A DNA stretch of 64,000 nt from Candidatus Binataceae bacterium. GTDB taxonomy: Bacteria > Desulfobacterota > Binatia > Binatales > Binataceae. Below are positions 37,441 through 54,619 of the stretch, piece by piece. Under the pieces are notes generated by a model. The model ran no database searches. It was given only the letters and a program-made list of their open reading frames with translations, and was not told the DNA's origin. The first letter of the stretch is position 1. Each line of letters opens with the position of its first letter. The DNA is taken from assembly GCA_963798375.1 (NCBI GenBank), contig CAWCTG010000032.1, forward strand, positions 72,232 to 136,231. The letters are read 5' to 3'. A program made the position numbers and the translations under genes.

Positions 37441-39183
37441 ATGAAACTATCGCTCGCTTGTGGATGCTGCAGACCATCAACGTTCAAACGACACCGCGAA
37501 CCAACCGACGCGCCAATTCAGGCCACCCCCGAAGAACTACAGGCGATAAGGCTCCAGCTCGCTGAGATCGAGCAATCGCTCTCGCGCCTATGGGGTCCGA
37601 CAATTTGGAGCCGCACGCCCGAGTGCATCCAGGTTCGCGCCGAAGCCGCCGATCTGATCGACCGGCACTTCGACGGCATCGTCGAGCAGTGGGGAGAAGC
37701 GATAATCGCCCTCATCGACGGCCGCTCCGAACACGACCAGGAAGAGGGCAAAGCCAGTTTGGTCAACGCTCTCATCCGTCTCGTCGATCACCTGCGCGAT
37801 CCCGACGACATTTGCACGTACGTTTATCTGCGCCGGCATTGCCAGGAGGGGATGCTCGCGCGGGCCAAACCGTCGCAGTTCAACACCATCCACATCGCGC
37901 TCAAGCAAATAATTCTCAATCACGTAAAATCTTCAATGACCGGTCCCGCGATGGAACTGGTGCGCGACCTGGTGGTGGCGGCAATCGACGAGCGGCGCCT
38001 GATGGTCTCGCAGTTCTACATCGAATCGCGCGAACGGATGCTGCGCGAATCCGAAGAGAAGTACCGCAACACCATCGACCACGCGCCGGATCCAATGTAT
38101 GAGATCGAAGCGGATACCTGGGTCGTGACCGGGCTGAATGCGGCCGCCCTGCGACTCCATCGAACCGAGGTACCGCCAAAAGGTTGGTATGACCCCGGCC
38201 ATGAAAAGAAGCAGATTATTGGATTTCCGATCACAGATTTCGTACCGCCGGAGTTAAGGCCAAGAGTGATCGAGAGCCTGGAGACGGTTGTGCGCCAGGG
38301 ATCGGCGCAGGCCTCGGAATTTCCGATCGGGCCGCTCTTCTTCGACGTAAACTCCGCGCTCATCACCTACGGCAAGAAGCAATTCATCCAGATGATCCTG
38401 CGCGACGTAACGCAGCGGCGCGACATGCTCGACTCGCTGATCAAGGCCGAGCGATTGGCCGCGGCGGGCACCTTCGCGGCGGGCGTGGCGCATGAGGTGA
38501 ACAACCCGCTGGCGTCGATCTCATCGCTGGTTCAATCCATCCTGACCGGCGAGAACGACCCCCAGCGGCGCACCACCCTGCACACCATCCTGTCCCAGAT
38601 CACGCGCATCTCGAGCACGCTCAAGGACCTGGTGAATTTCGCGCGACCCACCACCGCGCAACGCAAACCGGTTGACGTCAACGGGCTGATCGCCGAGACG
38701 CTGCGGCTCATCACCTACAACAAACGCTTCAGCGGCATCCAGATCGAACCCATTCTTGCTCCCGATCTGCGCCGCGCGTTCGCCGACGACAACGAAATTC
38801 AGCAGGTGCTGCTCAATCTGCTCTTCAACGCCGCCGACGCCTCCCCCGCCGAGGGCGCCGTGATCAAAGTGATCACCGAGAACCAGCGCGCCGGACAGGG
38901 CGCGGACAAATCGGGCCGGGTGGTTATCAAGGTGGTTGACAACGGCATCGGAATCCCGCGCGAACATCTGGAACGCGTGTTCGATCCATTCTTTACCACC
39001 AAGCCCGCGGGCGCCGGGGTCGGACTGGGACTGTCGCTATGCCAGCGCATGATCCTGTCCAATCAGGGCACCATTCGCGTTGACAGCGAGGTCGGCCGCG
39101 GCACCTCCGTCACCGTCACGCTGGCGGCGGGCGCCCAGGATTCCGAACGCGCGGAACAGGCGGCGAGCATGGCCGCGTCTTGA
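37441..39183 (+). CDS. PAS-domain sensor histidine kinase
   Basis: H-box HEVNNPLASI; HATPase motifs DNGIGIP and GLGLSL. Confidence 0.8.
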   Translation: MKLSLACGCCRPSTFKRHREPTDAPIQATPEELQAIRLQLAEIEQSLSRLWGPTIWSRTPECIQVRAEAADLIDRHFDGIVEQWGEAIIALIDGRSEHDQEEGKASLVNALIRLVDHLRDPDDICTYVYLRRHCQEGMLARAKPSQFNTIHIALKQIILNHVKSSMTGPAMELVRDLVVAAIDERRLMVSQFYIESRERMLRESEEKYRNTIDHAPDPMYEIEADTWVVTGLNAAALRLHRTEVPPKGWYDPGHEKKQIIGFPITDFVPPELRPRVIESLETVVRQGSAQASEFPIGPLFFDVNSALITYGKKQFIQMILRDVTQRRDMLDSLIKAERLAAAGTFAAGVAHEVNNPLASISSLVQSILTGENDPQRRTTLHTILSQITRISSTLKDLVNFARPTTAQRKPVDVNGLIAETLRLITYNKRFSGIQIEPILAPDLRRAFADDNEIQQVLLNLLFNAADASPAEGAVIKVITENQRAGQGADKSGRVVIKVVDNGIGIPREHLERVFDPFFTTKPAGAGVGLGLSLCQRMILSNQGTIRVDSEVGRGTSVTVTLAAGAQDSERAEQAASMAAS

Positions 39184-39196
39184 GAATCGAAATGCG

Positions 39197-40621
39197 ATGA
39201 ACAACGACGCTTCATGGACCGCACAGGAACGCGGACCTTACCGGCTGCTGATCGTCGAAGACGAACCCTTGATGCGCTCGATCATCGTGCAGCTCGCGCG
39301 CAGCGAAGGCTACGAGGTAATGGAGGCGCCGGCCGCGGAGGTCGCGCTGCACATCTTCGAAAAAGAAAAAATCGATCTCGCGATTCTCGACCTTAACCTG
39401 ACCAGCGGCGGCAACGGACTCGATCTGCTCCGCAAAATGCGCGAACTCGACCCCGAGGTGATGGGAATAATCGTCACCGCCTACGCCAGCGTCGAGTCAG
39501 CCGTCGAGGCGCTGCACCAGGGCGCTTACGATTACATCACCAAGCCGTTTGCGAACGATCATCTGAAAAAGGTGATGCGCAACGCGCTCGAGGGCAAGGC
39601 GCTGTTCAGGGAAAACCGTTTTCTGCGCCAGGAACTGCGCGAGAAGTATCGCTTCGAGAGCATCATCGGCAAAAGCGACGCCATCGAAAGCGTGTTCCGC
39701 GTCATGGAAAAAGTCGCGCGCACCGACACCAGCGTGTTGATCACCGGCGACTCCGGCACCGGCAAGGAACTGGTGGCCCGCGCGATTCATTTCAGCTCCG
39801 AGCGCGCCAGCAACCGCTTCCTGCCGATCAATTGCGGCGCGCTGCCCGAGAACCTGCTCGAGAGCGAACTGTTCGGCTACAAACGCGGCGCATTCACCGG
39901 CGCCGGGCAGGACAAGGTCGGCCTGCTCAAGGCCGCCGACAAAGGCACCGTCCTGCTCGACGAGATTGGCGAGTTGCCGCTCGCGCTGCAGGTCAAACTG
40001 CTGCGCGCGCTTCAGGAGCGCGAGGTCTATCCGCTTGGCGCCAACGATCCGGTGGCGTTCGACGTGCGCGTGCTGTGCGCCACCAATCGCAACCTCGAAA
40101 GCGAAGTCAAGGCCGGCCGCTTCCGCGAGGAACTGCTCTACCGAATCAACGTCATCAACATCAATCTTCCCGGTTTGCGCGAGCGCCAGGACGATATTCC
40201 CCTGCTCGCCAACCATTTCCTGCGCAAGTACGAAAAGTCGATGTCGCGAACAGCGATGCGCTTTTCCAAAGGCGCGATGCGCCTGCTCATCAACTACGCC
40301 TGGCCGGGCAACGTCCGGGAGCTCGAAAACGCCGTCGAGCGCGCCGCCATTCTGGCCGAGACCGACGTCATCCACTCGCACGATTTGCCTGACAAGCTGC
40401 GCAGCACGTCGCCCGTGATGGCGAGTGTCGAGAACCCCGGCCTCACGCTCGAGGAGCTTGAGCGCGAGCATATCAAACTCGTGCTCGACAGAGTCGAAAA
40501 CGACAAGGTGAAGGCCGCGCAGGTGCTCGGGATTCACCTCTCGACGCTCTATCGCAAGGTCCAGCGTTACCACCTCGACGGCGACATCCCCGTGCATCAG
40601 GAGCCTGCGCGCTCGGCGTGA
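39197..40621 (+). CDS. Sigma-54-dependent response regulator (NtrC family: REC + AAA+ + HTH)
   Basis: [11 protein letters not shown]...; Walker [16 protein letters not shown]; GAFTGA motif ([15 protein letters not shown]); C-terminal HTH. Confidence 0.9.
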
Positions 40622-42277: not shown

Positions 42278-42337
42278 GCTCGTCGTTGTGAGGAGCATGT
42301 GTAACCGCCGGCGGTAAGCCGCTAGACGGGCGCGCCT

Positions 42338-43395
42338 TTGCCGACGGCGGGCGCCCGAAATGGAGACGGCAATATGGAGGGGGAACGCAGCTCGCGAAAG
42401 TTTTGGGCAGGTCTTTTGGTGGCGCTGGTCGCGTTTGGAATCGCCTCCCTGGTTTCATCGCCCCCCGCAATCGGCATGGAAGGCACCCTGCTTTCCCAAG
42501 CCACAGGATCGGGGACCCGGCTACCGCCGGGCTATGTCCATAATGACACCTGCACCAGTTGCCATGATGTATCGGTCAAGTCCTTCCGCAAGACAATGAT
42601 GGGCCATCTTATGATGGGCCAGCCGCGCGACGAGGAGGAAGGCCTCGCGTGCCAGGCCTGTCATGGTCCCGGCCGCGAGCATCTACGCCATCCGAGCAAG
42701 CCGTCGCCGGGATTTCTGAGTTTTCGCGAGACCACCTTCACCGACATCAAGATTGAGAACGACCGGTGCCTCGCATGCCATCAAAACGGCGAGCGCGGGT
42801 TCTGGCGAGCCAGCGCCCACGCCGAGCGCGGCATTCGATGCGTTGATTGCCACGCCGTGATGTGTCCGGTGACGGCGAGCGCGCTGCCGCAGGCGCAACT
42901 CAAGAAGTCACCGCTTGGCACTGAATTCATCAACCCGTTCGTCGTGACGCGGCCCGAAACGCAGGTCTGCCTGCGCTGCCATCTCGACAAAAAGATGGAA
43001 ATCAATTTGCCGTCGCACATGCCGCTGCGCGAGGGGTTGATGACGTGCACCGACTGCCACAACCCGCACGGCGGACCGTATCAGAAGCAATTGCGGGCGG
43101 CGATGGTCAATGAGGTCTGCTACCGCTGTCATGCCGAAAAGCGCGGGCCGTTCCTCTGGATGCACGCGCCGGTGGCGATGAACTGCCTCAATTGCCATAT
43201 CCCGCACGGCAGCGTCAACCAGCACATGCTGGTGATCAACATGCCGGTGCTCTGCCAGCGCTGCCACATCGGCACCCGTCATCCGAGTGAGCCACAGAGG
43301 GGGGGTCAATTTTCGTGATCAACCAGCAATGCGCCAATTGCCATTCGCAGATACACGGCTCGAGCTCGCCGGGCGGGAGATATTTCACGCGCTGA
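42338..43395 (+). CDS. Periplasmic decaheme c-type cytochrome, MtrA/MtoA/PioA family. The reading frame is broken at the G7 run 43299-43305, which places the tenth CXXCH (CANCHSQIHGS) in the +1 frame.
   Basis: Nine CXXCH motifs in ORF 42338-43318 (CTSCH, CQACH, CLACH, CVDCH, CLRCH, CTDCH, CYRCH, CLNCH, CQRCH). The next frame reads INQQCANCHSQIHGSSSPGGRYFTR*, a typical MtrA-family C-terminus. N-terminal signal/anchor present. Confidence 0.8.
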
Positions 43396-43466
43396 AGCGG
43401 GAGGCAGAGGAACGCACGGCATCGCTGGGCCGCACCGCGTCTTGCAGCCGGCCCGGGAGGAAAGTC

Positions 43467-45722
43467 ATGAACCTGAAGCGGTTGTTAGCCGGATGTGGAA
43501 CGATGGCGCTCGTGTTGTCGATGCTTTCGCCGGCGCTGGCACAGGTCGATTTCGCGCAATTCACAGCGCAGGGTTCGGTCGAGGCCGGCGCCATTCCCCA
43601 GCCTGTCCCTTATACCAATGTCGCGGAGTATCAGCAGTACCGCGATCTGGCGCAGCAGTTCATCGTTCCGCAACTGCAGTTGATCCTGGGCGACAAGGCG
43701 GAGAACTACTACGTCCAGTTCGACGCCATCAACGTCGCGCAAAAGAACCAGATGTATTCGCTGCGCTTCGGCGAGTACGGTCTGCTCGATGTTCAGGCAA
43801 AATTCTTCGAGATTCCACACAACTTCAGCAACGGCATCGCGAGCACGCCGTACAACCAGGAAGGCGGCAACTTCACTCTATCCTCGAAGCCCACTGGTAC
43901 CGGCCCCGCGCTCGATTCCTGGCTGACAGCGAACGCCAAAACGTTCGACATGAGCCTGCTCGAAGGTGTCGCGGACATCGACGTGCGCTATACGCCGACG
44001 CCGTCGCTGACCTTCAGTGCGAACATGGATTACCAGAACCCCACCGGCCAACAGCCATTCGGCGGCTCCTTTCTGTTTGGCACCAGCCCGGGTACTTACA
44101 AAGTGAACGAACTGTTCCTGCCAATCCAGTACTACACCTATAACTTCGGCACCGGCATCGAATACGCGAAAAACGGATGGATGGTGGGTTTCCAGTACCA
44201 GGGGTCCTTCTTCGTCGACGACTACAGCACCCTGACCTGGGACAACCCCCTCAATACCAGCGGAGTAGGCAGCAAATGCGTTGATTCCACCGTTTTCACT
44301 TCCACCTCGCTCACCGGCCCCTGCCAGGGACGGGCAGCCATGTACCCGAACAACCAGGCTCACAACTTCATCGTGAACGGAACGGGTCAGCTTCCATTCA
44401 ACACACACGTGATGGGGAGCCTCGAGTACGGATTCTGGCTCCAGAACGCTCCCTTCATCCCGCTTACGGCCAACAGCAAGTTGCAGCAGTCATTAAGTTC
44501 GGTAGGAGCGCCTAATAGCCTCGGCGGCGACGTGCAGCCTTTCTTTGCCAACTTCACGATCGATAGCAATCCAATCGAACCGCTGGATCTAAAGGCGACC
44601 TATTCCTATTTCGATTACGACAACCTGACGCCGGCGATCACCTTCACAGGTGTTAAGTCGCTGAATGACGTAGCGGACGCGCAGACGCCTTTCACCGCTT
44701 ATCCCTTTGCATTCTCGGAGCAGGACGTCAGCCTCGAGCCAACCTACCGCCTGACTGATACTCTCGCCACACACTTTATGTTCAAGTGGCAGACCAACCA
44801 CAACGGCGGGCTGGAGGTGCTACAGCAGGATCAAACCAGCTACGGACCCGCGCTCGATTGGAACCCATACCCGTGGCTGACTTTCCGGGCGGACTACCAG
44901 CACGCGCACCGCGACTCGCCGGGATACAACAACAACCGCGCCAGCCTGGTCCAGGTGCTTGGCGGGACCCCGGGAGAGATCGAGGAGCTTCAGAGCCTCT
45001 GGCGGTTCGACGAGGCCACGCTCGATGTGAACCAGACCTCGCTCTATGCCTCCGCGCAGCCGATCGAACAACTCACGCTGTTCGCCGCCTTCAATTACGA
45101 CGACTATAACTACCCCAACAGCGACTTCGGCCTGGAGCACACTTCGGACTATTCGCCGTCGGTGGGGGCCAGTTGGGAACCGATGCCAGGCATGCACCTT
45201 TTTAGCGACTACTCCTGGCAGGCGTACGATTGGAACCTATGGTCACAGGACGAGACTACTATTCCGGCGGCGAAGCCTCCGCCTGGAAAAACGAACGCTT
45301 GGGAGGCCAGGGGCCGCAACCAGGGCAACAATATCGATTTCGGCACGGACATCGCGATACCGCCGAATCGCATTCTGCCGCGGCCGTCGCACCTGAAACT
45401 CCAGTACACCTACACGGTTGGCAACAACAGCACCCACCAATCGGGGGCTACCTCGGCCGGGGCGTCAGGGGAGGCGATCGACTATCCCGATGTCGGCAGC
45501 CAGTTCCAAGAGTTGATAATTCAGTACCAGTACGATTTGCTTGACAACCTGGCTATCAACGTCGGCTACTACTTCACTCACTCCAACGAAAACAATTTCA
45601 TGGTGGACAACATGAGGAACTACATGCCGAATGCAAGCGCAAATTCGACATTTCTCGGCAACACCGACATAGCTCCTTACAACGTCAATGTCGCATTCAT
45701 AACCCTGAAGTACAAATTTTAG
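43467..45722 (+). CDS. Large outer-membrane beta-barrel protein (~752 aa), MtrB/MtoB/PioB-like porin partner of the decaheme cytochrome
   Basis: Signal peptide MNLKRLLAGCGTMALVLSMLSPALAQ. Y/N/G/S/T/Q-rich with alternating amphipathic strands. Ends in an aromatic C-terminus ...AFITLKYKF. Sits immediately downstream of the MtrA-like gene. The listed ORF start 43287 is an artefactual upstream extension. Confidence 0.7.
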   Translation: MNLKRLLAGCGTMALVLSMLSPALAQVDFAQFTAQGSVEAGAIPQPVPYTNVAEYQQYRDLAQQFIVPQLQLILGDKAENYYVQFDAINVAQKNQMYSLRFGEYGLLDVQAKFFEIPHNFSNGIASTPYNQEGGNFTLSSKPTGTGPALDSWLTANAKTFDMSLLEGVADIDVRYTPTPSLTFSANMDYQNPTGQQPFGGSFLFGTSPGTYKVNELFLPIQYYTYNFGTGIEYAKNGWMVGFQYQGSFFVDDYSTLTWDNPLNTSGVGSKCVDSTVFTSTSLTGPCQGRAAMYPNNQAHNFIVNGTGQLPFNTHVMGSLEYGFWLQNAPFIPLTANSKLQQSLSSVGAPNSLGGDVQPFFANFTIDSNPIEPLDLKATYSYFDYDNLTPAITFTGVKSLNDVADAQTPFTAYPFAFSEQDVSLEPTYRLTDTLATHFMFKWQTNHNGGLEVLQQDQTSYGPALDWNPYPWLTFRADYQHAHRDSPGYNNNRASLVQVLGGTPGEIEELQSLWRFDEATLDVNQTSLYASAQPIEQLTLFAAFNYDDYNYPNSDFGLEHTSDYSPSVGASWEPMPGMHLFSDYSWQAYDWNLWSQDETTIPAAKPPPGKTNAWEARGRNQGNNIDFGTDIAIPPNRILPRPSHLKLQYTYTVGNNSTHQSGATSAGASGEAIDYPDVGSQFQELIIQYQYDLLDNLAINVGYYFTHSNENNFMVDNMRNYMPNASANSTFLGNTDIAPYNVNVAFITLKYKF

Positions 45723-45845
45723 GCCAAGCCTATTAAGGTACTTGGAGCGAGAGGCCGGAACACAAACAACGAATGACCTATCGTCCGCGGCGGCCCGGCC
45801 CGCAAACCAATTGGCGGACAAGGATTGTAAGGAAGGAGAGAAGCT

Positions 45846-46259
45846 ATGTCGAAGAGTTTGAGAACGAAGATTCGATCGAGACTCTGGATTTGGACCGCGT
45901 CGGCCATACCAGCAGTTGCAGTGCTGGCGTTGATCTCAACCTGCGCCCGCGCAGCCGATCTCACGGCCGCGGCCGGCAGTTACTCGGATACCTGCGCTAA
46001 GTGTCACGGCCCGGCCGGCAAGGGCGATGGCCCCAAAGCGGCCGAACTGAAAGACAAGGACGGCAAGCCGGTCACCATCGGAGATTTATCCGATTGTGCC
46101 AAGATGAGCAAGATAACCGATGACGACATGTTCAAGGAGCTGAAAGAGGGCGGCGCGTCAGTAGGCAAGAGCAAGTTCATGACTCCCTATGGCGATGCGA
46201 TGGAGGACGACGAGATCAAAGGGCTGGTCGCTTATGTCAGAACCTTGTGCAAGAAGTAG
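45846..46259 (+). CDS. Monoheme class-I cytochrome c, secreted (MtoD/Cyc1-like candidate periplasmic shuttle), paralog 1
   Basis: Signal peptide; single CAKCH; conserved C-terminus LVAYVRTLCKK. Confidence 0.8.
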   Translation: MSKSLRTKIRSRLWIWTASAIPAVAVLALISTCARAADLTAAAGSYSDTCAKCHGPAGKGDGPKAAELKDKDGKPVTIGDLSDCAKMSKITDDDMFKELKEGGASVGKSKFMTPYGDAMEDDEIKGLVAYVRTLCKK

Positions 46260-46280: not shown

Positions 46281-46406
46281 TCGACTGTATCAATACTGGC
46301 ACCCGGTTCCATGAGTTGATATTTCAGTGCGAGTACGATTTTGCGCGATAACATCGCGTCATCGCAGGCTACTACTCCAGCAATTGTGGCGAACATAATT
46401 TCATGG
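46281..46406 (+). repeat. Degraded duplicate of the porin-gene 3' region (cf. 45480-45603), footprint of a tandem segmental duplication that generated the second monoheme cytochrome gene
   Basis: ~75% identity by direct alignment. Both cytochrome genes end ...tgcaagaagtagcggcgcgcgcca. Both have an AAGGAAGGAGAG-type SD. Confidence 0.7.
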
Positions 46407-46423
46407 AGGGAAGGAGAGGAGCA

Positions 46424-46825
46424 ATGAGAACTAAGATTCGATCGATACTGTGGGTTTGGACCGTGTCGGCCATACCGGCGGTTGCAGCGCTGGCGTTGAT
46501 CTCAACCGGCGCCCGCGCAGCCGATCTCACGGCCGCGGCCAGCAGTTACTCGGATACGTGCGCTAAGTGTCACGGCCCGCTCGGCAAGGGCGACGGCCCC
46601 AAAGCTGCCGAACTGAAAGACAAGGACGGCAAGGTGGTCCCCAGCGGAGATTTGTCCGATTGCGCCAAGATGGCCAAGGTTACTGACGACGACATGTTCA
46701 AGGAGCTCAAGGAAGGCGGCCAGGCGGTCGGCAAGAGCAAGTTCATGACTCCCTATGGCGACGCGATGGAGGACGACGAGATCAAGGCGATGGTTGCGTA
46801 CGTCAGAACCTTGTGCAAGAAGTAG
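46424..46825 (+). CDS. Monoheme class-I cytochrome c, paralog 2 (tandem duplicate of 45846-46259)
   Basis: MRTKIRSILWVWTVSAIPAVAALALIS...CAKCHGP...MVAYVRTLCKK; ~85% aa identity to paralog 1. Confidence 0.8.
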   Translation: MRTKIRSILWVWTVSAIPAVAALALISTGARAADLTAAASSYSDTCAKCHGPLGKGDGPKAAELKDKDGKVVPSGDLSDCAKMAKVTDDDMFKELKEGGQAVGKSKFMTPYGDAMEDDEIKAMVAYVRTLCKK

Positions 46826-47113
46826 CGGCGCGCGCCAGGCTCCAGAATGAGCCTCGGCGCGCGGGGTTGAAAGCGAGCAGTCTCAGGCAGCGGCCGGCTT
46901 GTAGTTCGCCGGCGGTGTCGCGCAGCAGTTGTACTCGCGCTCGCCCTGACCACTCAAAGCTGGCAAGTGAAAGGCCTCGCACTGGTAACCGGCTGAACCT
47001 CACCAGAGAGCGACCCAGGACAAGCGGGTCCGATCCCAGGGATCGGACCGCTTGCCGCTCGGAAACCGGGCGTCGCTTCCCCAGATTTTCGAGAGAAGCT
47101 ACGCAGGTGGAAT

Positions 47114-48655
47114 ATGCAAACGAGCGGAGATGAGCCGGGCGCACCGGGATCGGAGCGCCCGGCACGGCAAAATGGCGCCGAGGCCGAACGCCAATTACCA
47201 AGCCTGGCTCGCAACCGGCTGAGCATCGCCGGCCTGATCATCGCCGTCATCGTCTTGGCGGACATGGTTTCCCTGGCTGGCATGACGCTGCTAGGGGTGC
47301 AGTTGAACCCCTACGTCGGCATTTTTGCCTACCTGATCGGTCCGGCCGTCATGATATTCGGCCTGTTGCTCATTCCGGCCGGGATGGCACTCGAACGGCG
47401 ACGGCGCCGGAAGTTTCTGCCGGGTGAGCTGCCGCCCTTTCCCAAGCTCGATCTCAACGAGCCTTCGGTTCGGCGCGGCTTTCTCGGCGCGGTAGGCTTT
47501 TCGATGTTTTTTGTGGTTCTGAGCCTGGCGGCAAGCTACCAAGGCTACCAGTTCACGGACTCGGTGATGTTCTGCGGCCAGACCTGTCACGTCCCGATGA
47601 AGCCGGAATTCGACGCCTACCAGGATTCGCCGCACGCGCGGGTCGCATGCGCGGACTGCCACGTAGGACCCGGCGCCACTTGGTTTGTTCGCTCCAAGCT
47701 GTCGGGCGCCTATCAGGTCTATGCGGTAATGTTCAACAAGTACCCCAGACCGATTGAAACCCCCATCAAGGATTTGCGCCCGGTTCAGGCAGCCTGCGAG
47801 CAATGCCATTGGCCGCAGAAGTTCTACGGCGCGCAACTCAAGGTCTTCGCGCATTATGCCTACGACGAGAAGAACACGCCCACGCGCATCCAGATGCTGA
47901 TCAAGACCGGAGGAGGAGCTGCCGAGTTCGGCCGCGCCACCGGAATCCACTGGCACATGAACATCGCCAACCAAGTATGGTTCGCGGCTACTGACACGCA
48001 GTCCCAGGTGATTCCATGGGTGAAGGTAAGGACCCCCGACGGAAGGACCACGGAATACACTGCCAAGGGCACTTCGCTGACCCCAAAGCAGATTGCGGCG
48101 ATTCCCATCCAGACGATGGACTGTGTGAGCTGCCATGCCCGCCCGTCCCATAAGTTTCTTCCGCCCGATCAGGCGGTCGATGCGTCGTTCGAGGCGGGCC
48201 AGCTCGACCCTACGCTTCCCTTCTTGAAGAGGCAGGCGGTCAAGGCTCTGCTCAAGCGCTATGACACGTCGGAACACGCGACCGAGGGAATCGCCACCGC
48301 CCTCGATACCTTTTACCAGGATCGCTATCCCCAGATTTATGCCGCCAAGGCGCAGCAAATCGGGGCCGCCATTGCCGCCGTGCAGCACATCTACACAACC
48401 AACATCTTTTCGTTTATGCGGGTTGATTGGCGCACGCATCCCGATAACATCGGCCACCTTTATTACGCGGGATGCTTCCGCTGTCACGACGGGCAGCACG
48501 TCAGCGCCGATGGCCGGGTGATACCCCAGCAATGCGAAACCTGTCACACGGTCCTTGCATCTCCCAACAGTGTCGCCGAGTTCAAGCATCCAGTTGATCT
48601 GAACGATGTAGGCGGCGCGACCTGCAGCACCTGTCATACCGGAGGCGTCCTGTAA
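47114..48655 (+). CDS. Membrane-anchored heptaheme c-type cytochrome, NapC/NirT-related (ImcH-like candidate quinol/quinone oxidoreductase)
   Basis: Two N-terminal TM helices; seven CXXCH (CGQTCH, CADCH, CEQCH, CVSCH, CFRCH, CETCH, CSTCH); 513 aa. Confidence 0.7.
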   Translation: MQTSGDEPGAPGSERPARQNGAEAERQLPSLARNRLSIAGLIIAVIVLADMVSLAGMTLLGVQLNPYVGIFAYLIGPAVMIFGLLLIPAGMALERRRRRKFLPGELPPFPKLDLNEPSVRRGFLGAVGFSMFFVVLSLAASYQGYQFTDSVMFCGQTCHVPMKPEFDAYQDSPHARVACADCHVGPGATWFVRSKLSGAYQVYAVMFNKYPRPIETPIKDLRPVQAACEQCHWPQKFYGAQLKVFAHYAYDEKNTPTRIQMLIKTGGGAAEFGRATGIHWHMNIANQVWFAATDTQSQVIPWVKVRTPDGRTTEYTAKGTSLTPKQIAAIPIQTMDCVSCHARPSHKFLPPDQAVDASFEAGQLDPTLPFLKRQAVKALLKRYDTSEHATEGIATALDTFYQDRYPQIYAAKAQQIGAAIAAVQHIYTTNIFSFMRVDWRTHPDNIGHLYYAGCFRCHDGQHVSADGRVIPQQCETCHTVLASPNSVAEFKHPVDLNDVGGATCSTCHTGGVL

Positions 48656-48679: not shown

Positions 48680-50056
48680 GTGAGACAAATGACGCACGGA
48701 TCAGGGCGTATGGTTAGCTCAGGGCGGACGGTTAGCGGCCTCGGGCGCGCCGCGTGCGCTATTGCGGCAATGCTGCTGTACGCAGTTGCAACGGCGCAGG
48801 CCGCTCCGACCAAGGCCGCTCCGCCGAAGGCCGCTAAGACGACGAGAGCCGGTAAGACGACGAAAGCCGCTCCGGCGAAGCCGCTCACCGATAGCGATTG
48901 CCTGTCCTGTCATAATCTTAAGGCCAGCGCCAAGTTACAGGCGCGGCCGGTTAGCGTGTACGTCAATGCGGAGATATACCAGCCCTCGGTCCACGCGAAG
49001 CTGGGTTGTGTCTCCTGCCATTCTGACATCCATGCCTTTCCTCATCCCGATCCGGTCAAGCCGGTTTCCTGCGCCGGCTGCCACGCGAGTGAGACTTCGG
49101 CCTATGCGGGCAGCGTTCACGCTATCGCCGAGCGGGAGAAGAAGAGCCGCTTTCCGGCCTGTCTCAATTGTCACGGAAACCCCCACGGCCTCCGCGCCAA
49201 GACTGACCCGAAGTCGCGAGTTTACCCGCTCAACCTGCCGGGCACCTGCGGCACCTGCCACGGTAACCCCGAGCTTGCCAAGAAATATGGCTTGCCGGAC
49301 GTGTACCCGCTCTACATGGATTCGATTCACGGCTTCGCGCTGAGTGCCGACGGGCTCCTGGTGGCTGCCACCTGCAGCAAGTGCCATGGCGCGCACGATA
49401 TCCTCAGCCGAAAGGACCCGAAGAGCCGGATCTTCTATAAAAATGTGCCTGCCACCTGTGGCGCGTGCCATGCCGGCGTCGAAGTCGAGTACCTTGCCGG
49501 AGCGCACGGCGCGGCGATGATCGCCGGGCGCGCGAATGCTCCGGTATGCACGAATTGCCATACCTCGCATCAGATTACCCAGGTGGACGTCGCTAGCTGG
49601 CAAATCAAAACCGTCGCCACCTGCGGTAACTGTCACAAGACCAGGCTTAGGAGCTACGGCGATACTTTCCACGGCGAGGTGACCGAGCGCGGCTTCGTCT
49701 CCGCGGCGCAATGCTGGAGTTGCCATGGCGCTCACGAAGTTCTTAAGGCCTCCAATCCCAAGTCCAAGGTCGCGCCGGCCAACCTTCTCACCACCTGCGG
49801 CAAGTGCCACGTCGGCGCAACCGCTAGCTTTGTCAAGTACGATCCGCATCCCAATGCGCACGAGCGGCGGCGCAACCCGGCCCTGTATTACGCGGCTCTA
49901 TGCATGGGACTGCTGCGTTTGATTGACCCATTCGGACTGATGGCTGTTGGCGTGGTGCTCGCAATTACGCTCGCTCACGGAATCGGCCAGATCGTGCGGT
50001 ATAACACGGGGACGGACCACTCGGACTCTGACCGCCATTCGGGAGATGAAAAATGA
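48680..50056 (+). CDS. Undecaheme (11 x CXXCH) c-type cytochrome with Sec signal and C-terminal hydrophobic helix
   Basis: CLSCH, CVSCH, CAGCH, CLNCH, CGTCH, CSKCH, CGACH, CTNCH, CGNCH, CWSCH, CGKCH counted. Repeated ...DPKSR... spacing. C-terminal TM LYYAALCMGLLRLIDPFGLMAVGVVLAITLAH. Confidence 0.8.
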   Translation: MRQMTHGSGRMVSSGRTVSGLGRAACAIAAMLLYAVATAQAAPTKAAPPKAAKTTRAGKTTKAAPAKPLTDSDCLSCHNLKASAKLQARPVSVYVNAEIYQPSVHAKLGCVSCHSDIHAFPHPDPVKPVSCAGCHASETSAYAGSVHAIAEREKKSRFPACLNCHGNPHGLRAKTDPKSRVYPLNLPGTCGTCHGNPELAKKYGLPDVYPLYMDSIHGFALSADGLLVAATCSKCHGAHDILSRKDPKSRIFYKNVPATCGACHAGVEVEYLAGAHGAAMIAGRANAPVCTNCHTSHQITQVDVASWQIKTVATCGNCHKTRLRSYGDTFHGEVTERGFVSAAQCWSCHGAHEVLKASNPKSKVAPANLLTTCGKCHVGATASFVKYDPHPNAHERRRNPALYYAALCMGLLRLIDPFGLMAVGVVLAITLAHGIGQIVRYNTGTDHSDSDRHSGDEK

Positions 50057-50145
50057 CCTACGTCGTAGTTGATCCCGTAACGCGCATCGAGGGCCATCTA
50101 CGGATCGAAGCCGAGCTTGACGGCGGCAAGGTGAGGATTCTGTGA
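50053..50145 (+). pseudogene. 30-codon remnant of a [NiFe]-hydrogenase large subunit (N-terminal L1 motif fused to a short C-terminal tail), start/stop-coupled between the 11-heme cytochrome and cytochrome b
   Basis: MTYVVVDPVTRIEGHLRIEAELDGGKVRIL*. VVDPVTRIEGHLRIE matches the universally conserved N-terminus of NiFe hydrogenase large subunits (cf. E. coli HyaB LVVDPITRIEGHMRCEV). Its ATG overlaps the upstream TGA (ATGA) and its TGA overlaps the GTG of the cytochrome b gene. Confidence 0.65.
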
Positions 50146-50843
50146 GTGCGCCACCGCGGCTTGTGCCCGAGCCACCTGGCACTGGCCTTGTTTATGTCTG
50201 GCAACTGCCAGTGCGTTTGTCGCACTGGTTGATCGTCATATCGATAGCTGTGCTAGCGGTTACCGGCTACTTCATCGGCAATCCGTTAATAACAACCGGC
50301 GGACCTGCAAGGGATCGCATCGTCGCAGCCACCATGCGCAGCATCCATCTCTACGCCGCGTGGGTGTTTGGTGTGTCGGTGGTCGTGCGGGTTTACTGGA
50401 TGTTCGCCGGCAGTTACTACGCGCGTTGGGACCAGTTCATTCCGGTCTCGCGCGACCGGCTCAATAGCGTCTGGCAGGCGATGAGGTTTTATAGCTTCCA
50501 GCGCCGCGGCCCACAGCTTTATCCGGGTCATAGCGGCCTTGCCGCGCTGGCTTATACGGGCATCTTCATGATCTACTTTATGGAGATCGTCACCGGCCTG
50601 GCCCTGTACTTCATCTATGCTCCGGCGAATTCGGTCTTTCAGGGTTTTCGCTTTTTAGTCCCAATCTACTCTCGCTTTCTCCACCATATCGGGATGTGGA
50701 TCTTGTTGATGTTCGTGATTCAGCACGTGTACTCGACGATTCTTTTTTCGGTCGAGGAGCGCAGTGGAATCATCGACTCGATGTTCACAGGCTACAAGCG
50801 CATAAGCCCGGAAGCCGAGGAGGAGGCGCATCGCGATGCCTGA
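50142..50843 (+). CDS. Dihaem b-type cytochrome of the Ni/Fe-hydrogenase (HyaC/HydC/FdnI-like) family, membrane quinone-interacting subunit
   Basis: Four TM helices with conserved His (RLSHWLI..., IHLYAAW, HHIGMWILLMFVIQHVYS); family-typical R-x-x-H-W at TM1. Confidence 0.8.
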   Translation: MSAPPRLVPEPPGTGLVYVWQLPVRLSHWLIVISIAVLAVTGYFIGNPLITTGGPARDRIVAATMRSIHLYAAWVFGVSVVVRVYWMFAGSYYARWDQFIPVSRDRLNSVWQAMRFYSFQRRGPQLYPGHSGLAALAYTGIFMIYFMEIVTGLALYFIYAPANSVFQGFRFLVPIYSRFLHHIGMWILLMFVIQHVYSTILFSVEERSGIIDSMFTGYKRISPEAEEEAHRDA

Positions 50844-50891
50844 CGAGTTACTCGAACTCATGAACGCCGCTATCACACAAGGAGAATCGCA

Positions 50892-51656
50892 ATGATATTC
50901 GGTGTAGTCATCTTAATCGCCGCAATCTTCATTCTGAGCGGGGTCAAAGTCCTTAACGAATATCAGCGCGCCGTAGTCTTCCGCCTGGGGCGGCTCATGC
51001 GGTACCGCGGCCCCGGCATAATTTACGTGGTCCCCCTGGTGGAGCGGATGGTCCGGATCGATCTGCGTACCGTCGTGCTCGACATCCCGCCGCAGGACGT
51101 AATCACCAAGGACAACGTGACCGTCAAGGTGAGCGCGGTGCTCTACTTCCGGGTGATCGATCCGTCGCGCGCGGTCACCGAGGTGGCAAATTACCTGTTC
51201 GCCACCATGCAGCTCGCGCAGACCACCCTGCGCTCCGTTGGCGGACAGACCGAACTCGACGAACTTCTGAGCCAGCGCGACAAAGTCAACGCGCGCATCC
51301 AGGCGATCGTCGATGCCCAAACCGAGCCGTGGGGAATCAAGGTCATGCTCGTCGAGCTGAAGAACATTGATCTGCCGCAGGACATGCAGCGCGCGATCGC
51401 CGCCCAGGCCGAGGCCGAGCGCGAACGGCGCGCCAAGGTGATCGCGGCCGAGGGCGAATTTCAGGCGGCGCAGCGCCTGGCCGAGGCGGCGGAAATCATG
51501 GGCAAAAGCCCGATCACGCTCCAGCTTCGCTACCTGCAGACGCTTGCCGAGATCGCGACCGAGCATAATTCGACCACCGTGTTTCCCCTCCCGATCGATC
51601 TGCTCGAGCCCTTTCGCAAGCTGGCAGGCGGCGGCGACGCCGACAAGCCGAAGTAA
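50892..51656 (+). CDS. SPFH/band-7 (stomatin/prohibitin-like) membrane protein
   Basis: N-terminal TM; SPFH core [18 protein letters not shown]...; C-terminal coiled coil [22 protein letters not shown]. Confidence 0.85.
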
Positions 51657-51954
51657 GGGGAGGTCATCGCGGCGCCGTGGACAGATGGCGCCGGCAGTGG
51701 TCGGATCGCTGAGCTGATTTCGACGACGGCCCTGGGCACGCCTGATTGTGGTTGACAAAAGCTTGGAATAAATGTTGCTGATGCTTTAAAGTAAGCGGAT
51801 GAAGGGAGGCTAATGCGTTGGGAAAAACGGAACTGAGGATGCTATCGTCGCACGATGTTCCCAACCATTGTGTCTCAAACGAATACACCTGTGTAGCCTT
51901 TCGTCATGATGTTTGGTAGCGAAGCGAAACGCCTTAGACAAAAGAAGGAGCAGA

Positions 51955-52368
51955 ATGGTCATGTCAGAAAATTCACCGGCGAAGATTCGATCGAAGGGCT
52001 GGAGCTGGACGCCCTTGGCGGCGGGAGTAGCGATGATGCTGGCGCCGGCATTGATCCCAACCGTCGTACGTGCCGCCGAAGTCGATCTGAAGGCCGCGGC
52101 CAGTAATTATTCGGATTCGTGCGTGGACTGCCATGGTGAGTCGGGCAAAGGCGACGGTAAAAAGGCGGCCGACCTGAAGGTCAAGCCCGCCGACTATACC
52201 AATTGCGCAGAGATGACGAAGTTGAGCGACGATTATCTCTTCAACGTCATCAAAAACGGCGGCAAGTCGGTGCACAAGAGCGAGGCCATGGCCGACTTCG
52301 GCAAGGCCTACGACGACGACGAGATTCACGGGCTTGTCGCCTACGTCCGCACGTTCTGCAAAAAGTGA
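51955..52368 (+). CDS. Monoheme class-I cytochrome c, third and more divergent paralog
   Basis: Signal peptide; CVDCHGESGKGDG; C-terminus LVAYVRTFCKK. Confidence 0.75.
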   Translation: MVMSENSPAKIRSKGWSWTPLAAGVAMMLAPALIPTVVRAAEVDLKAAASNYSDSCVDCHGESGKGDGKKAADLKVKPADYTNCAEMTKLSDDYLFNVIKNGGKSVHKSEAMADFGKAYDDDEIHGLVAYVRTFCKK

Positions 52369-52917
52369 GTGCGGCTAGCCGTGCCCGACGGTAATCGCGC
52401 ACAATTTGCGGTCTCGGAAGCCGGCGAAGTTATCGAGAGCGAACCGCGGCGGAAGTTCCTGGCGCGTCTGTTCTGGGGCGCGATGGCCATTGTCAGCGCC
52501 GCCATCGCGGCGCCCGTCATTTCCTATCTGATTATCCCGCTGTTGCGGCCGGGTGAGTCCAACGATTGGGTAAAGATGGGAAACATCGCCGACCTTCCGC
52601 TCAACCTTCCCCAGCGGCTCGAGGTCGGCCGGCGCGTGGTCGAGGGATGGGAAACGGACGATTCGCAGGTGACGGCCTGGGTGGTGCGGATGCCGGACAA
52701 AATCTACGTTTTCGATCCGCATTGCACGCACTTGGGATGCGCCTACCGATGGGTCGAGCAGGAAAAGCAGTTCTTCTGCCCATGCCATGCCGGCGTATTC
52801 AGCCTAACCGGGCAGGTGGTCAGCGGCCCTCCCCCACGTCCGCTGGACGTTTACGCGCACGAGGTCCGCGAGGGCGCCCTTTATGTGGTCCCGACTCCAA
52901 CTAAGCAAGTGGTTTGA
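52369..52917 (+). CDS. Rieske [2Fe-2S] iron-sulfur protein with twin-arginine signal
   Basis: RRKFLARL Tat motif; Rieske boxes CTHLGC and CPCHAGVF; GTG start directly after the upstream stop. Confidence 0.85.
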   Translation: MRLAVPDGNRAQFAVSEAGEVIESEPRRKFLARLFWGAMAIVSAAIAAPVISYLIIPLLRPGESNDWVKMGNIADLPLNLPQRLEVGRRVVEGWETDDSQVTAWVVRMPDKIYVFDPHCTHLGCAYRWVEQEKQFFCPCHAGVFSLTGQVVSGPPPRPLDVYAHEVREGALYVVPTPTKQVV

Positions 52918-54619
52918 CGAGCGCCTCGGCACGCGGGCGATCCGCGTCGCGCTCTTCGATCGCAACATTCCGAAAAGCAGCCCGCTGGTCGAGTGGATCT
53001 ACACGCTCGGCAGCGTGCTGCTGTTCTTTTTCATCCTTCAAGCAGTGACCGGCATGATGCTGGCGATGAACTATGTGGCCAGCCCCGATCACGCCTTCGA
53101 CGCCGCGCGTTACATCTCGCTGCGCGCTCCCATGGGCCAGTTCATCCGTGGGCTTCATTCGTGGGGCGCAACCGCGATGGTGGTGGTGATCGGCGCGCAC
53201 ATGCTGACCACCTTTCTCTCCGGCAGCTACAAGTATCCGCGCGAATCGACCTGGATTACCGGCGTCGTCCTGTTCCTGATCGTGATGTTGTTCGGATTCA
53301 CCGGATATCTGCTGCCCTGGAACCAGAAGTCGTACTGGGCGACCGTGGTCGGCACCAACATCGCGGGCGCGACTCCCTACATCGGGCAGTACATCGTGCG
53401 CTTCTTCCGCGGTGGCAGCGAGGTCGGCCCGCAAACGTTGACCAGATTCTACGCCCTGCACGTGCTGATGCTGCCGGCGGCGCTGATCGTTTTCGTCTCG
53501 GTGCATCTTTTCATGGTCGTGCGCCAGGGCATCTCGGCGCCTCCCAAGCGGCATCCCGAATACGGCCGCCACGGTATCAACGCCCAGCTCGGCATCGACC
53601 CCGGGCTTGGTGTCGGCACCCAGCTCAGCGTCGACGACCAGCGCAGCCGGGCGGCCGACGAATATCATCACGAGAAAGAGGCCGGCGAGTCCTTCTATCC
53701 GTTTTATCTGTCCAAAGACGCTGTCGCCGTGCTGCTGGCGCTTTCGGTGCTGGTGATTTTGGTCTTGAAGTATCCGGCCGAGATCGGCGAGATCGCCGAC
53801 CCCGCCAGCACCAGCTACAATCCGCGCCCGGACTGGTACTTCCTGTTCCTGTTCCAGGCGCTCAAGTATTTTCCCGGCAGCATGGAATCGGTCGCGGCAG
53901 TCATGCTGCCGGGGCTTGCGTTGCTGGTCCTCGTCACAGTGCCCTTCTTCGATCGGCGGATGCGCCAGCATCCGCTGGACCGCCCGATCGCAACCGGCTT
54001 TGCGCTCTCCACGCTGGTCGGCGTGATCGCGTTGACCGTGATCGGCGCGCGATCGCCGCTGCTCAACCCATATGTGCCGGAGCTGCCGACCGTCGCCGAG
54101 GGTCACCGGCTCTTTCACACGCTCAATTGCGCATACTGCCACGCCGTCAATGGCCGCGGGAGCAGGATTGGGCCCGATCTGATGCTGGATCCCCTCAAGC
54201 ACGACAAGGCTTGGATAGTCCTCCATCTCGAGCGGCCCGGCGAAGTCTTTCGGCCCGGCGCCCGCACCGCAATGACCGGATTGTTGCCGGAGGAAAGCGC
54301 GGACCTGTTCGACTACATCAATGAGCTGCAGGGCGGCGGCCCCTATAGCGACAAGGCGTCCCGGCTGTTCTACCGAAATTGCGGCAAGTGCCACATGGTG
54401 GCAGGCCACGGCGGCGCCAAGGCTCCCGATCTGAGCGGAATCGGGCTGGTGCGGTCGGTTTCGTTCATCCACCGCTACATCGAGGATCCGAAGGCCCTCT
54501 ACAGCCAGACCAAGATGCCGCCGTTCTTGCAGCCGCAGGGCAAGCTGACCCACCCCGAAATCGAGGACATCGCGCGCTTTCTCGCGCATCAGCGCACACC
54601 GGCGCCACCTAAAAACTGA
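52883..54619 (+). CDS. Cytochrome b (b6 plus subunit-IV-like, fused) with a C-terminal dihaem cytochrome c domain: the cytochrome b/c subunit of a Rieske/cyt b complex
   Basis: Cytochrome b6 N-terminus LSKWFDERLG; haem-ligating His in TM helices; PEWY-like region PDWYFLFLFQALK; two C-terminal CXXCH (CAYCH, CGKCH). Confidence 0.85.
   Translation: MWSRLQLSKWFDERLGTRAIRVALFDRNIPKSSPLVEWIYTLGSVLLFFFILQAVTGMMLAMNYVASPDHAFDAARYISLRAPMGQFIRGLHSWGATAMVVVIGAHMLTTFLSGSYKYPRESTWITGVVLFLIVMLFGFTGYLLPWNQKSYWATVVGTNIAGATPYIGQYIVRFFRGGSEVGPQTLTRFYALHVLMLPAALIVFVSVHLFMVVRQGISAPPKRHPEYGRHGINAQLGIDPGLGVGTQLSVDDQRSRAADEYHHEKEAGESFYPFYLSKDAVAVLLALSVLVILVLKYPAEIGEIADPASTSYNPRPDWYFLFLFQALKYFPGSMESVAAVMLPGLALLVLVTVPFFDRRMRQHPLDRPIATGFALSTLVGVIALTVIGARSPLLNPYVPELPTVAEGHRLFHTLNCAYCHAVNGRGSRIGPDLMLDPLKHDKAWIVLHLERPGEVFRPGARTAMTGLLPEESADLFDYINELQGGGPYSDKASRLFYRNCGKCHMVAGHGGAKAPDLSGIGLVRSVSFIHRYIEDPKALYSQTKMPPFLQPQGKLTHPEIEDIARFLAHQRTPAPPKN

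Follow-up and report, generated by a model that had tools for sequence, protein, structure and literature searches.

The gene at nucleotides 47114-48655 of a 64,000-nucleotide stretch of Candidatus Binataceae DNA (the window) raises the question of whether a multihaem cytochrome encoded beside an MtrAB-like porin-cytochrome conduit is an ImcH-type quinol dehydrogenase and, if so, whether it serves that conduit. In Geobacter, ImcH carries electrons from membrane quinols towards minerals outside the cell; experiments there have defined just three such gateways in the inner membrane for extracellular electron transfer (EET). Our results favour assignment of the product as a bona fide ImcH-family cytochrome, i.e. 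a quinol:cytochrome c oxidoreductase joining the quinone pool to the periplasmic cytochromes of an EET cluster, with a probability that we put at about 0.8. We observe homology to ImcH, conservation of its motifs and ligands, matching topology signals and a synteny that recurs among relatives; by homology to Geobacter ImcH and NrfH, the protein probably oxidises quinol, and its partners and direction of electron flow can be proposed on the same grounds.

The open reading frame (ORF) called in a first-pass annotation proved exact in its coordinates, opening with an ATG codon preceded by an AGGTGG ribosome-binding site, and its GC content at third codon positions (GC3, 0.75) is in line with that of adjacent genes. 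The 513-residue product has 14 cysteines, every one of them within seven haem-binding motifs; the number of CXXCH motifs expected by composition alone is 0.013, so the haem motifs are well above chance. The annotation had described two N-terminal transmembrane helices (TMHs) followed by seven CXXCH motifs. The count of seven haem motifs stands, but the first is of the CX3CH type (C154-GQT-C158-H159) and only the other six are CXXCH; and three helices, not two, are found by hydropathy (residues 36-62, 66-94 and 121-142) and in the AlphaFold model, with the CX3CH motif of haem 1 lying six residues past TMH3. After these corrections the likeness to ImcH in size, haem count and topology that the annotation had proposed is borne out. 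Levar 2014 (PMC4251993) described the atypical CX3CH first motif of ImcH directly after the transmembrane domain, and Zhong & Shi 2018 (PMC6295460) defined an ImcH signature of 495-519 residues, three transmembrane motifs, a CX3CH motif by the transmembrane domain and six CX2CH motifs, to which the corrected anatomy is an exact match.

The transmembrane anchor itself is upheld by hydropathy, by AlphaFold helices and by the charge pattern. The second AlphaFold model has a mean predicted local distance difference test score (pLDDT) of 82.8 and a predicted template modelling score (pTM) of 0.79, with block pLDDT values for the transmembrane helices of about 61-92, mostly >77 and lowest near residue 105. 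The loop after TMH1 contains no lysine or arginine, whereas the loop at residues 95-120 (RRRRRK...) contains eight; because the positive charge sits in this second loop, the sequence fits a cytoplasmic N-terminus and a periplasmic haem domain. Attachment of c-type haem requires that the haem domain be periplasmic.

BLASTP comparison with G. sulfurreducens ImcH (GSU3259), to which the annotation had likened the protein, gave 45% identity over 270 residues (E 3e-83) with residues 1-277, taken from a machine-read alignment in the supplement of Pimenta 2023; the match begins at TMH1 and takes in haem 3 and the GIHWH motif. For the remainder a full-length ImcH proxy was used, in which P0135, with authentic G. 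sulfurreducens residues 1-148, is continued by P0133, such that proxy residues 149-509 are those of a Geobacter-like metagenomic protein and not of GSU3259 itself. The N-terminus of P0135 is that of the G. sulfurreducens protein, with C132...H137 at the published positions, and P0133 is 82% identical to GSU3259, with the same ...KH end and motif positions that equal the published numbering. Identity to this proxy is 42.2% over 488 aligned positions. The resulting 42-45% identity to ImcH falls within the 31.5-49% range published for the Geobacter group versus other accepted ImcH homologues (Zhong & Shi 2018, PMC6295460). Conversely, a search from the GSU3259 fragment returned Geobacteraceae proteins together with P0007 and P0009, the Candidatus Binatus proteins closest to the window protein; among the matches listed from that search, none was >485 residues long. 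A 22-mer primer for the GSU3259 locus (ATGACATTGCGCAAAACCGCAG) had, among genome contigs, a sole match by chance in a Desulfofustis metagenome-assembled genome (L001, not a cytochrome), and a 25-mer had no match among metagenome contigs.

The family is large, with homologues in more than 7,600 clusters (90% identity) at E <1e-5 in a search limited to 8,000 candidates. The closest among the matches listed are metagenomic proteins with 84-88% identity, and the closest named ones are 'NapC/NirT family cytochrome c' of Candidatus Binatus and Binataceae; other hosts include NC10, Acidobacteriota (Koribacter, Terriglobales) and 'Deltaproteobacteria'. An identical protein in the same gene order is present on a contig of an independent NCBI assembly (GCA_052916185.1). 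The best homologues are membrane-anchored and not, as the annotation had considered in the alternative, soluble nitrite- or hydroxylamine-type cytochromes, NrfA being matched only at E 0.28.

The correspondence with ImcH extends to the haem ligands and the quinol site, for which the predicted axial ligands and residues Glu127, Lys173 and Tyr188 of ImcH were taken from the supplement of Pimenta 2023. In the proxy alignment, ImcH His137/152/161/210/256/258/316 map to H159/174/183/232/279/281/341 and His321/423/433/453/474/491 to H346/448/458/478/492/508, such that 13/13 predicted axial histidines, as well as 14/14 haem cysteines, are kept; Gln179, Lys173 and Tyr188 map to Q201, K195 and Y210, and Glu127 to Asp149, a conservative change. 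The motif spacing agrees with the published GSU3259 numbering. Conservation was read in two homologue alignments, A1 and A2, of 53 and 119 sequences, respectively, down to 38% identity. The mapped ligand and quinol-site residues, including K195, are invariant in both, with Q201 at least 90% conserved, and F-C-G-x-x-C-H is invariant across the 119 homologues.

A further residue invariant in the 119 homologues is Met162 (47597-47599), three residues past H159 of haem 1. It aligns with the methionine that replaces histidine as the haem-1 ligand of NrfH, and Q201 aligns with the aspartate beside haem 1 of that protein. The published ImcH model has His/Gln ligation for haem 1 (Pimenta 2023), alongside which Met162 may play some part.

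The arrangement of the first haem pair, which the annotation had recognised as NapC/NirT/NrfH-like, is confirmed by a PF03264 score of 40.3 bits (cut-off 24.1) and by a match to NrfH (2j7a_C, residues 134-241 of the window protein, E 1e-5), the only meaningful solved relative by sequence; cytochrome c3/c7-type Pfam matches cover residues 450-509. The PF03264 match, the weak NrfH and TorC model matches and the position of NrfH as the top PDB sequence match would also suit a canonical NapC/NirT/NrfH/TorC anchor subunit of a reductase that acts on nitrite, nitrate or N-/S-oxides in the periplasm. We consider such an identity scarcely credible. Canonical members were taken to have a single transmembrane anchor, 4-5 haems, about 160-390 residues and a family-model score above cut-off, whereas the NCBIfam equivalog scores are far below theirs (NrfH TIGR03153, 55 against 134.2; NapC/NirT TIGR02161, 15.2 against 310.6; TorC, 24.1 against 455), and the protein has three TMHs, seven haems and 513 residues. 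Moreover, no NrfA, NapAB, TorA or DorA gene is present in the window cluster, and the full-length homology is to ImcH. Scores, anatomy, neighbourhood and ImcH homology thus effectively refute the reductase-anchor reading, and canonical tetrahaem NapC/NirT/NrfH/CymA/ImoA (or pentahaem TorC/DorC) proteins were rejected as identities; ImoA and CymA in particular are tetrahaem, single-TMH proteins, and the model scores are far under cut-off. The protein is also outside the CbcL/MtrH/MtoC family, having no PF01292 match and no b-type cytochrome domain. Because homology, anatomy, ligands and the NapC/NirT region all agree, membership of the ImcH family holds for every feature that can be judged from sequence. 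The positions of these features, and of the neighbouring genes, are collected in Table 1.

Table 1. The imcH homologue, its parts and its neighbours in window coordinates (A1 and A2, homologue alignments; AF2, AlphaFold; aa, amino acid residues; nt, nucleotides).
Feature	Position	Strand	Basis or remark
Histidine kinase and sigma-54-dependent response regulator, upstream	37441-40621	+	
MtrA/DmsE-family periplasmic multihaem cytochrome, 9 CXXCH	42338..43318	+	TIGR03508 205 bits (cut-off 192.2); MtrA 6r2q_A E 5e-47
MtrB/PioB-family outer-membrane porin	43287..45722	+	PF11854 E 1e-74
Monohaem class-I cytochrome c, signal peptide, paralogue 1; candidate periplasmic carrier	45846..46259	+	PF00034/PF13442
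Monohaem class-I cytochrome c, paralogue 2	46403..46825	+	About 90% DNA identity to paralogue 1
imcH homologue	47114..48655	+	513 aa, inner-membrane heptahaem c-type cytochrome; ORF and homology to GSU3259
TMH1 (residues 35-59)	47216..47290	+	Hydropathy, AF2 helix, aligns with GSU3259 TMH1
TMH2 (residues 66-99), then cytoplasmic RRRRRK loop	47309..47410	+	Hydropathy, charge, AF2
TMH3 (residues 117-148), ends FTD149 (= ImcH Glu127)	47462..47557	+	Hydropathy, AF2, proxy alignment
NapC/NirT/NrfH-homologous region (residues 126-210): TMH3, haems 1-2, putative quinol site	47489..47743	+	PF03264 40.3 bits, NrfH 2j7a_C
Haem 1 motif C154-GQT-C158-H159, atypical CX3CH	47573..47590	+	= ImcH C132/C136/H137; invariant in 119-sequence alignment A2
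Haem 2 motif CADCH (179-183)	47648..47662	+	Motif scan, ligand mapping, alignment A2
K195...Q201 = ImcH Lys173 (quinol-site lysine), Gln179 (distal haem-1 ligand)	47696..47716	+	Proxy alignment
Haem 3 motif CEQCH (228-232)	47795..47809	+	Motif scan, ligand mapping, alignment A2
Haem 4 motif CVSCH (337-341)	48122..48136	+	Motif scan, ligand mapping, alignment A2
Haem 5 motif CFRCH (454-458)	48473..48487	+	Motif scan, ligand mapping, alignment A2
Haem 6 motif CETCH (474-478)	48533..48547	+	Motif scan, ligand mapping, alignment A2
Haem 7 motif CSTCH (504-508)	48623..48637	+	Motif scan, ligand mapping; invariant in alignment A1
11-CXXCH multihaem cytochrome, signal peptide, C-terminal transmembrane anchor	48680..50056	+	Starts 24 nt past imcH
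HyaC/HydC-type dihaem cytochrome b	50142..50843	+	PF01292 E 5.5e-26; TIGR02125 138 bits (cut-off 121.5); E. coli HyaC 4gd3_A E 1.6e-31
SPFH/Band-7 (HflK/C-like) membrane protein	50892-51656	+	
Monohaem c, Rieske protein and cytochrome b-cytochrome c fusion (bc-type complex)	51913..54619	+	Co-conserved with imcH in relatives

The genomic contexts of twelve homologues were examined, eleven of them non-Geobacter, with the window counted together with contig L010. An MtrA-like cytochrome and a porin are encoded within 10 kb of imcH in six of the eleven, i.e. in the window (with L010), L002, L007 (Koribacter), L009, L012 and L014 (Vicinamibacterales); the porin of L012, a 736-residue product encoded beside the MtrA-like gene and without a Pfam match, was counted as probable. 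The Geobacteraceae context (L015) has no MtrAB, as expected. The gene orders differ among the MtrAB-positive contexts, which argues that the linkage is under selection and does not reflect shared ancestry alone. A multihaem cytochrome c and cytochrome b module, split or fused, lies directly beside imcH in 9/11 non-Geobacter contexts, with fused CbcL-like versions adjoining it in Koribacter and L012, and orthologues of the 11-haem gene follow imcH in L002, L003, L005, L009 and L011. A Rieske/cytochrome b complex is encoded near imcH in six contexts, L002, L005, L007 and L009 among them, and a monohaem cytochrome c gene stands directly 5' of imcH in the window, L002, L009, L011 and L013. The gene is linked more tightly to the Rieske/cytochrome b complex and to the 11-haem gene with its cytochrome b partner than to mtrAB. 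The 11-haem protein and the HyaC/HydC-type cytochrome b together form a split bc module of the CbcL/CbcBA-like kind, and the cluster potentially holds up to three interfaces with the quinone pool, namely ImcH, this module and the Rieske/cytochrome b complex.

By analogy with Geobacter ImcH and NrfH, the three N-terminal helices would anchor the periplasmic seven-haem domain in the inner membrane, with TMH3 and haems 1-3 forming a quinol dehydrogenase core like that of NapC/NirT/NrfH. Quinol would bind on the periplasmic side of the membrane, beside haem 1, in a site that may be shaped by TMH3, the CX3CH motif, Gln201, Lys195, Asp149, Tyr210 and Met162, with the release of protons to the periplasm making the step electroneutral. 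Electrons would then travel along the haem chain as far as a haem 7 exposed to solvent and be handed to soluble cytochromes of the periplasm. Likely acceptors are the pair of monohaem class-I cytochromes whose genes lie immediately upstream; these in turn would reduce the MtrA-like cytochrome inside the MtrB/PioB porin.

Several findings weigh against this assignment and, in particular, against a role for the protein as the dedicated partner of the conduit. When the model was compared with the PDB by Foldseek, no match was significant, not even one to NrfH. No MtrAB is encoded within 10 kb of imcH in 5/11 non-Geobacter contexts, so the link of imcH to a conduit is not obligatory. In the window a gap of 288 nt with a strong hairpin separates imcH from the upstream genes, whereas the downstream 11-haem gene starts only 24 nt beyond it; because of this difference the tightest partner of imcH may be the bc module and not MtrAB. 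The cluster also has, with no MtrC, with class-I monohaem cytochromes and with a Rieske/cytochrome b complex, the look of an Mto/Pio-type oxidation cluster.

The spacing speaks for an alternative in which the protein is a quinol dehydrogenase that is not dedicated to MtrAB; it would be a general hub resembling CymA, or would work with the 11-haem/cytochrome b module and the bc complex, and the quinone interface of MtrAB would be the CbcL/MtoC-like bc module or the Rieske/cytochrome b complex. We regard this arrangement as rather unlikely, although it accords with the higher incidence of the multihaem cytochrome/cytochrome b pair beside imcH (9/11 contexts, compared with 6/11 for MtrAB), with the 2018 survey (PMC6295460), in which genes of the CbcL/MtrH/MtoC type, not imcH, adjoined mtrAB/mtoAB, and with the presence near imcH of NorB/NnrS in L012 and of a molybdopterin oxidoreductase in L005. 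Where MtrAB is present, however, it and imcH share one co-directional cluster, and do so in three different gene orders in different phyla, which argues for a functional linkage between the two; furthermore, in Geobacter ImcH and CbcL feed one periplasmic pool in parallel and not in series. The proposal in the first-pass annotation that the protein is the quinone-pool interface of the conduit is thus plausible, in that synteny with MtrAB recurs in other phyla, but the protein is not the sole candidate, there being two further interfaces in the cluster. ImcH may not be the only, or even the main, interface of MtrAB, because the bc module is more closely spaced and more often co-occurs.

The Mto/Pio-like composition of the cluster makes the direction of electron flow uncertain, with an inward, metal-oxidising role possible. 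In such a role the same family would act as a quinone reductase, or point of electron entry, in Mto/Pio-like Fe(II)/Mn(II) oxidation or electron uptake, and the protein would hold the position that ImoA (CymA-ES1) or MtoC has in mto operons of Gallionellaceae. The presence of MtrA and MtrB without an MtrC-like extracellular cytochrome, the location of periplasmic monohaem class-I cytochromes in the MtoD position, the Rieske/cytochrome b complex, a proposed route of reverse electron flow in Fe(II) oxidisers, and the addition of a cupredoxin in L009 are consistent with this. We nonetheless think it unlikely: quinol oxidation is the one role in which ImcH has been implicated to date (Zhong & Shi 2018, PMC6295460), Geobacter ImcH is electroneutral and its haem potentials of -150 to -358 mV are unfavourable for the passage of Fe(II)-derived electrons to quinone without energy input (Pimenta 2023), ImoA itself acted as a quinol oxidase when assayed, and the monohaem cytochromes have no MtoD match among solved structures. 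The ImcH precedent and the low haem potentials lead us to favour, modestly, outward flow from the window protein, i.e. acceptor reduction.

With respect to other features of the cluster, the hairpin 5' of imcH (47010-47075) has a minimum free energy of -39.3 kcal/mol, compared with -25 ± 2.9 for shuffled sequences (z -4.9), with perfect 13-bp arms at about 47022-47053 and no U-tract; it could serve in processing, stabilisation or attenuation. In the window, matches to sigma-54 -24/-12 motifs (28, against 27.7 expected) are at chance level, as are the results of sigma-70 and terminator scans. Histidine kinase/sigma-54 regulators are also encoded near imcH in L003/L004 and L014, and the regulator pair of the window is reminiscent of BccR, which controls cbcBA in Geobacter. 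No MtrC-type extracellular cytochrome is encoded in the window cluster, and its MtrA/DmsE-family cytochrome has nine CXXCH motifs, where the counterparts in L007 and L009 have ten. The tandem duplication of the monohaem cytochrome c gene has about 90% DNA identity over 413 nt, L002 carrying one copy and L011 two. An 'MtoD-like' label for these cytochromes was dropped, MtoD not being among the PDB sequence matches and the analogy being one of position only. The SPFH gene, which separates the cytochrome b gene from the Rieske/cytochrome b complex, is kept in the window, L002, L010 and L011, which suggests a scaffold or quality-control role for membrane complexes.

Comparison with relatives reveals rearrangement within the cluster. 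The mtrA-mtrB pair of the window (42288-45731) is inverted with respect to the rest of the cluster in the 85%-identical L002 (4422-7866), which indicates a recent rearrangement. DNA synteny with L002 (85-90% identity) breaks at window positions 49921-50857, and the transmembrane anchor of the 11-haem protein diverges from the junction onward. Relatives carry a conserved cytochrome b of 276-280 residues, instead of which the window and the independent contig L010 have the HyaC type; a 30-residue ORF before the cytochrome b gene (50053-50145) is a remnant of the N-terminus of a [NiFe]-hydrogenase large subunit (MTYVVVDPVTRIEGH...). The region looks like a b-subunit cassette swapped in from a hydrogenase operon. 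Relative L013 has a hydrogenase operon of this kind 8 kb from its imcH, with a cytochrome b that shares 56% identity with the one in the window. A hydrogenase small-subunit anchor was considered as the source of the divergent C-terminal transmembrane tail of the 11-haem protein, and no support for it was found. Just downstream of the cluster, the segment 54838-57363 has a lower GC content (0.55-0.58) and is not collinear with the otherwise 99.7%-identical L010 (about 2.5 kb in the window, about 1.25 kb in L010); it is a strain-variable insertion or deletion.

Overall, the window protein is a typical representative of an established family; its host lineage is new, and its gene context is little described but not unreported. 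A 2018 survey (Zhong & Shi, PMC6295460) reported no imcH beside mtrAB/mtoAB and none outside Fe(III) reducers; the first of these statements is contradicted by the window and by at least five further contexts, where an orthodox ImcH is encoded in one co-directional cluster with a CbcL-like module, a bc complex and a conduit of the MtrAB type. The hosts are Binatia, Koribacter and Vicinamibacterales, i.e. abundant but poorly understood soil and subsurface lineages. Such clusters have already been described in a 2026 metagenomic paper, with which our context findings agree, and the gain over that work is one of confirmation and detail, not of discovery. The results support the use of imcH as a marker of mineral-linked respiration well beyond Desulfuromonadia, and the clusters are natural hybrids, combining a Geobacter-type inner membrane with a Shewanella-type outer membrane, on which the modularity of EET may be tested.

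The supercluster of MtrA/MtrB-like proteins, monohaem cytochromes c, ImcH, a CbcL/CbcBA-like module and a Rieske/cytochrome b complex is seen in the Binatia-like genome and in Acidobacteriota. The whole set might be horizontally mobile as one respiratory unit, with as many as three different interfaces linking the quinone pool to one and the same outer-membrane conduit, and with the first ImcH homologue in an Mto-like pathway, although we consider this distinctly unlikely. If true, the Mto-like pathway would be a metal-oxidising or electron-uptake one, and the unit would give aerobic or facultative soil bacteria a potential-tiered or bidirectional exchange of electrons with Fe/Mn minerals.

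Comparison with known systems places the protein closest to ImcH. CbcL/MtrH/MtoC and CbcBA are alternative inner-membrane quinol oxidases for EET, of which a split version is encoded directly downstream, but they form a separate family whose cytochrome b domain is absent from the window protein. CymA of Shewanella and ImoA of Sideroxydans (Slit_2495) occupy the same functional position, as inner-membrane NapC/NirT-type proteins that are encoded with, or work for, MtrAB/MtoAB conduits, but are tetrahaem, single-TMH proteins of about 190 residues each. NrfH of Desulfovibrio vulgaris (PDB 2J7A/2VR0) is the only solved quinol dehydrogenase of the NapC/NirT family; its one TMH and first haems align with those of the window protein, with a lysine at an adjoining position (as interpreted following Pimenta 2023), its haem-1 methionine corresponding to Met162 and its aspartate beside haem 1 to Q201. 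NrfH has one TMH, four haems, a CXXCHxM motif and a fixed complex with NrfA, whereas the window protein has three TMHs, seven haems, a CX3CHxxM motif and no NrfA partner.

Geobacter ImcH has been shown to lie in the inner membrane, to interact with menaquinol, to be reduced in part by menadiol, to pass electrons to PpcA and to behave electroneutrally (Levar 2014, PMC4251993; Pimenta 2023), and in G. sulfurreducens genetic evidence shows that it is needed specifically for high-potential (above -0.1 V) extracellular acceptors (Levar 2014, PMC4251993). A G. sulfurreducens mutant deleted for imcH fails to grow on Fe(III) citrate and on electrodes above -0.1 V. The window protein differs from GSU3259 in having Asp149 in place of Glu127, a longer N-terminal cytoplasmic extension and a shorter C-terminal tail; its gene is clustered, whereas Geobacter imcH is monocistronic and away from porin-cytochrome pairs (PMC4251993, PMC6295460), and its host is a Binatia-like bacterium, not a known metal reducer. 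The two proteins are alike in length (about 509 and 513 residues), in their three N-terminal TMHs, in a CX3CH motif straight after TMH3 followed by six CXXCH motifs at matching spacing, in a NapC/NirT-like core, and in the 13 histidine ligands, the haem-1 glutamine and the counterparts of Lys173 and Tyr188.

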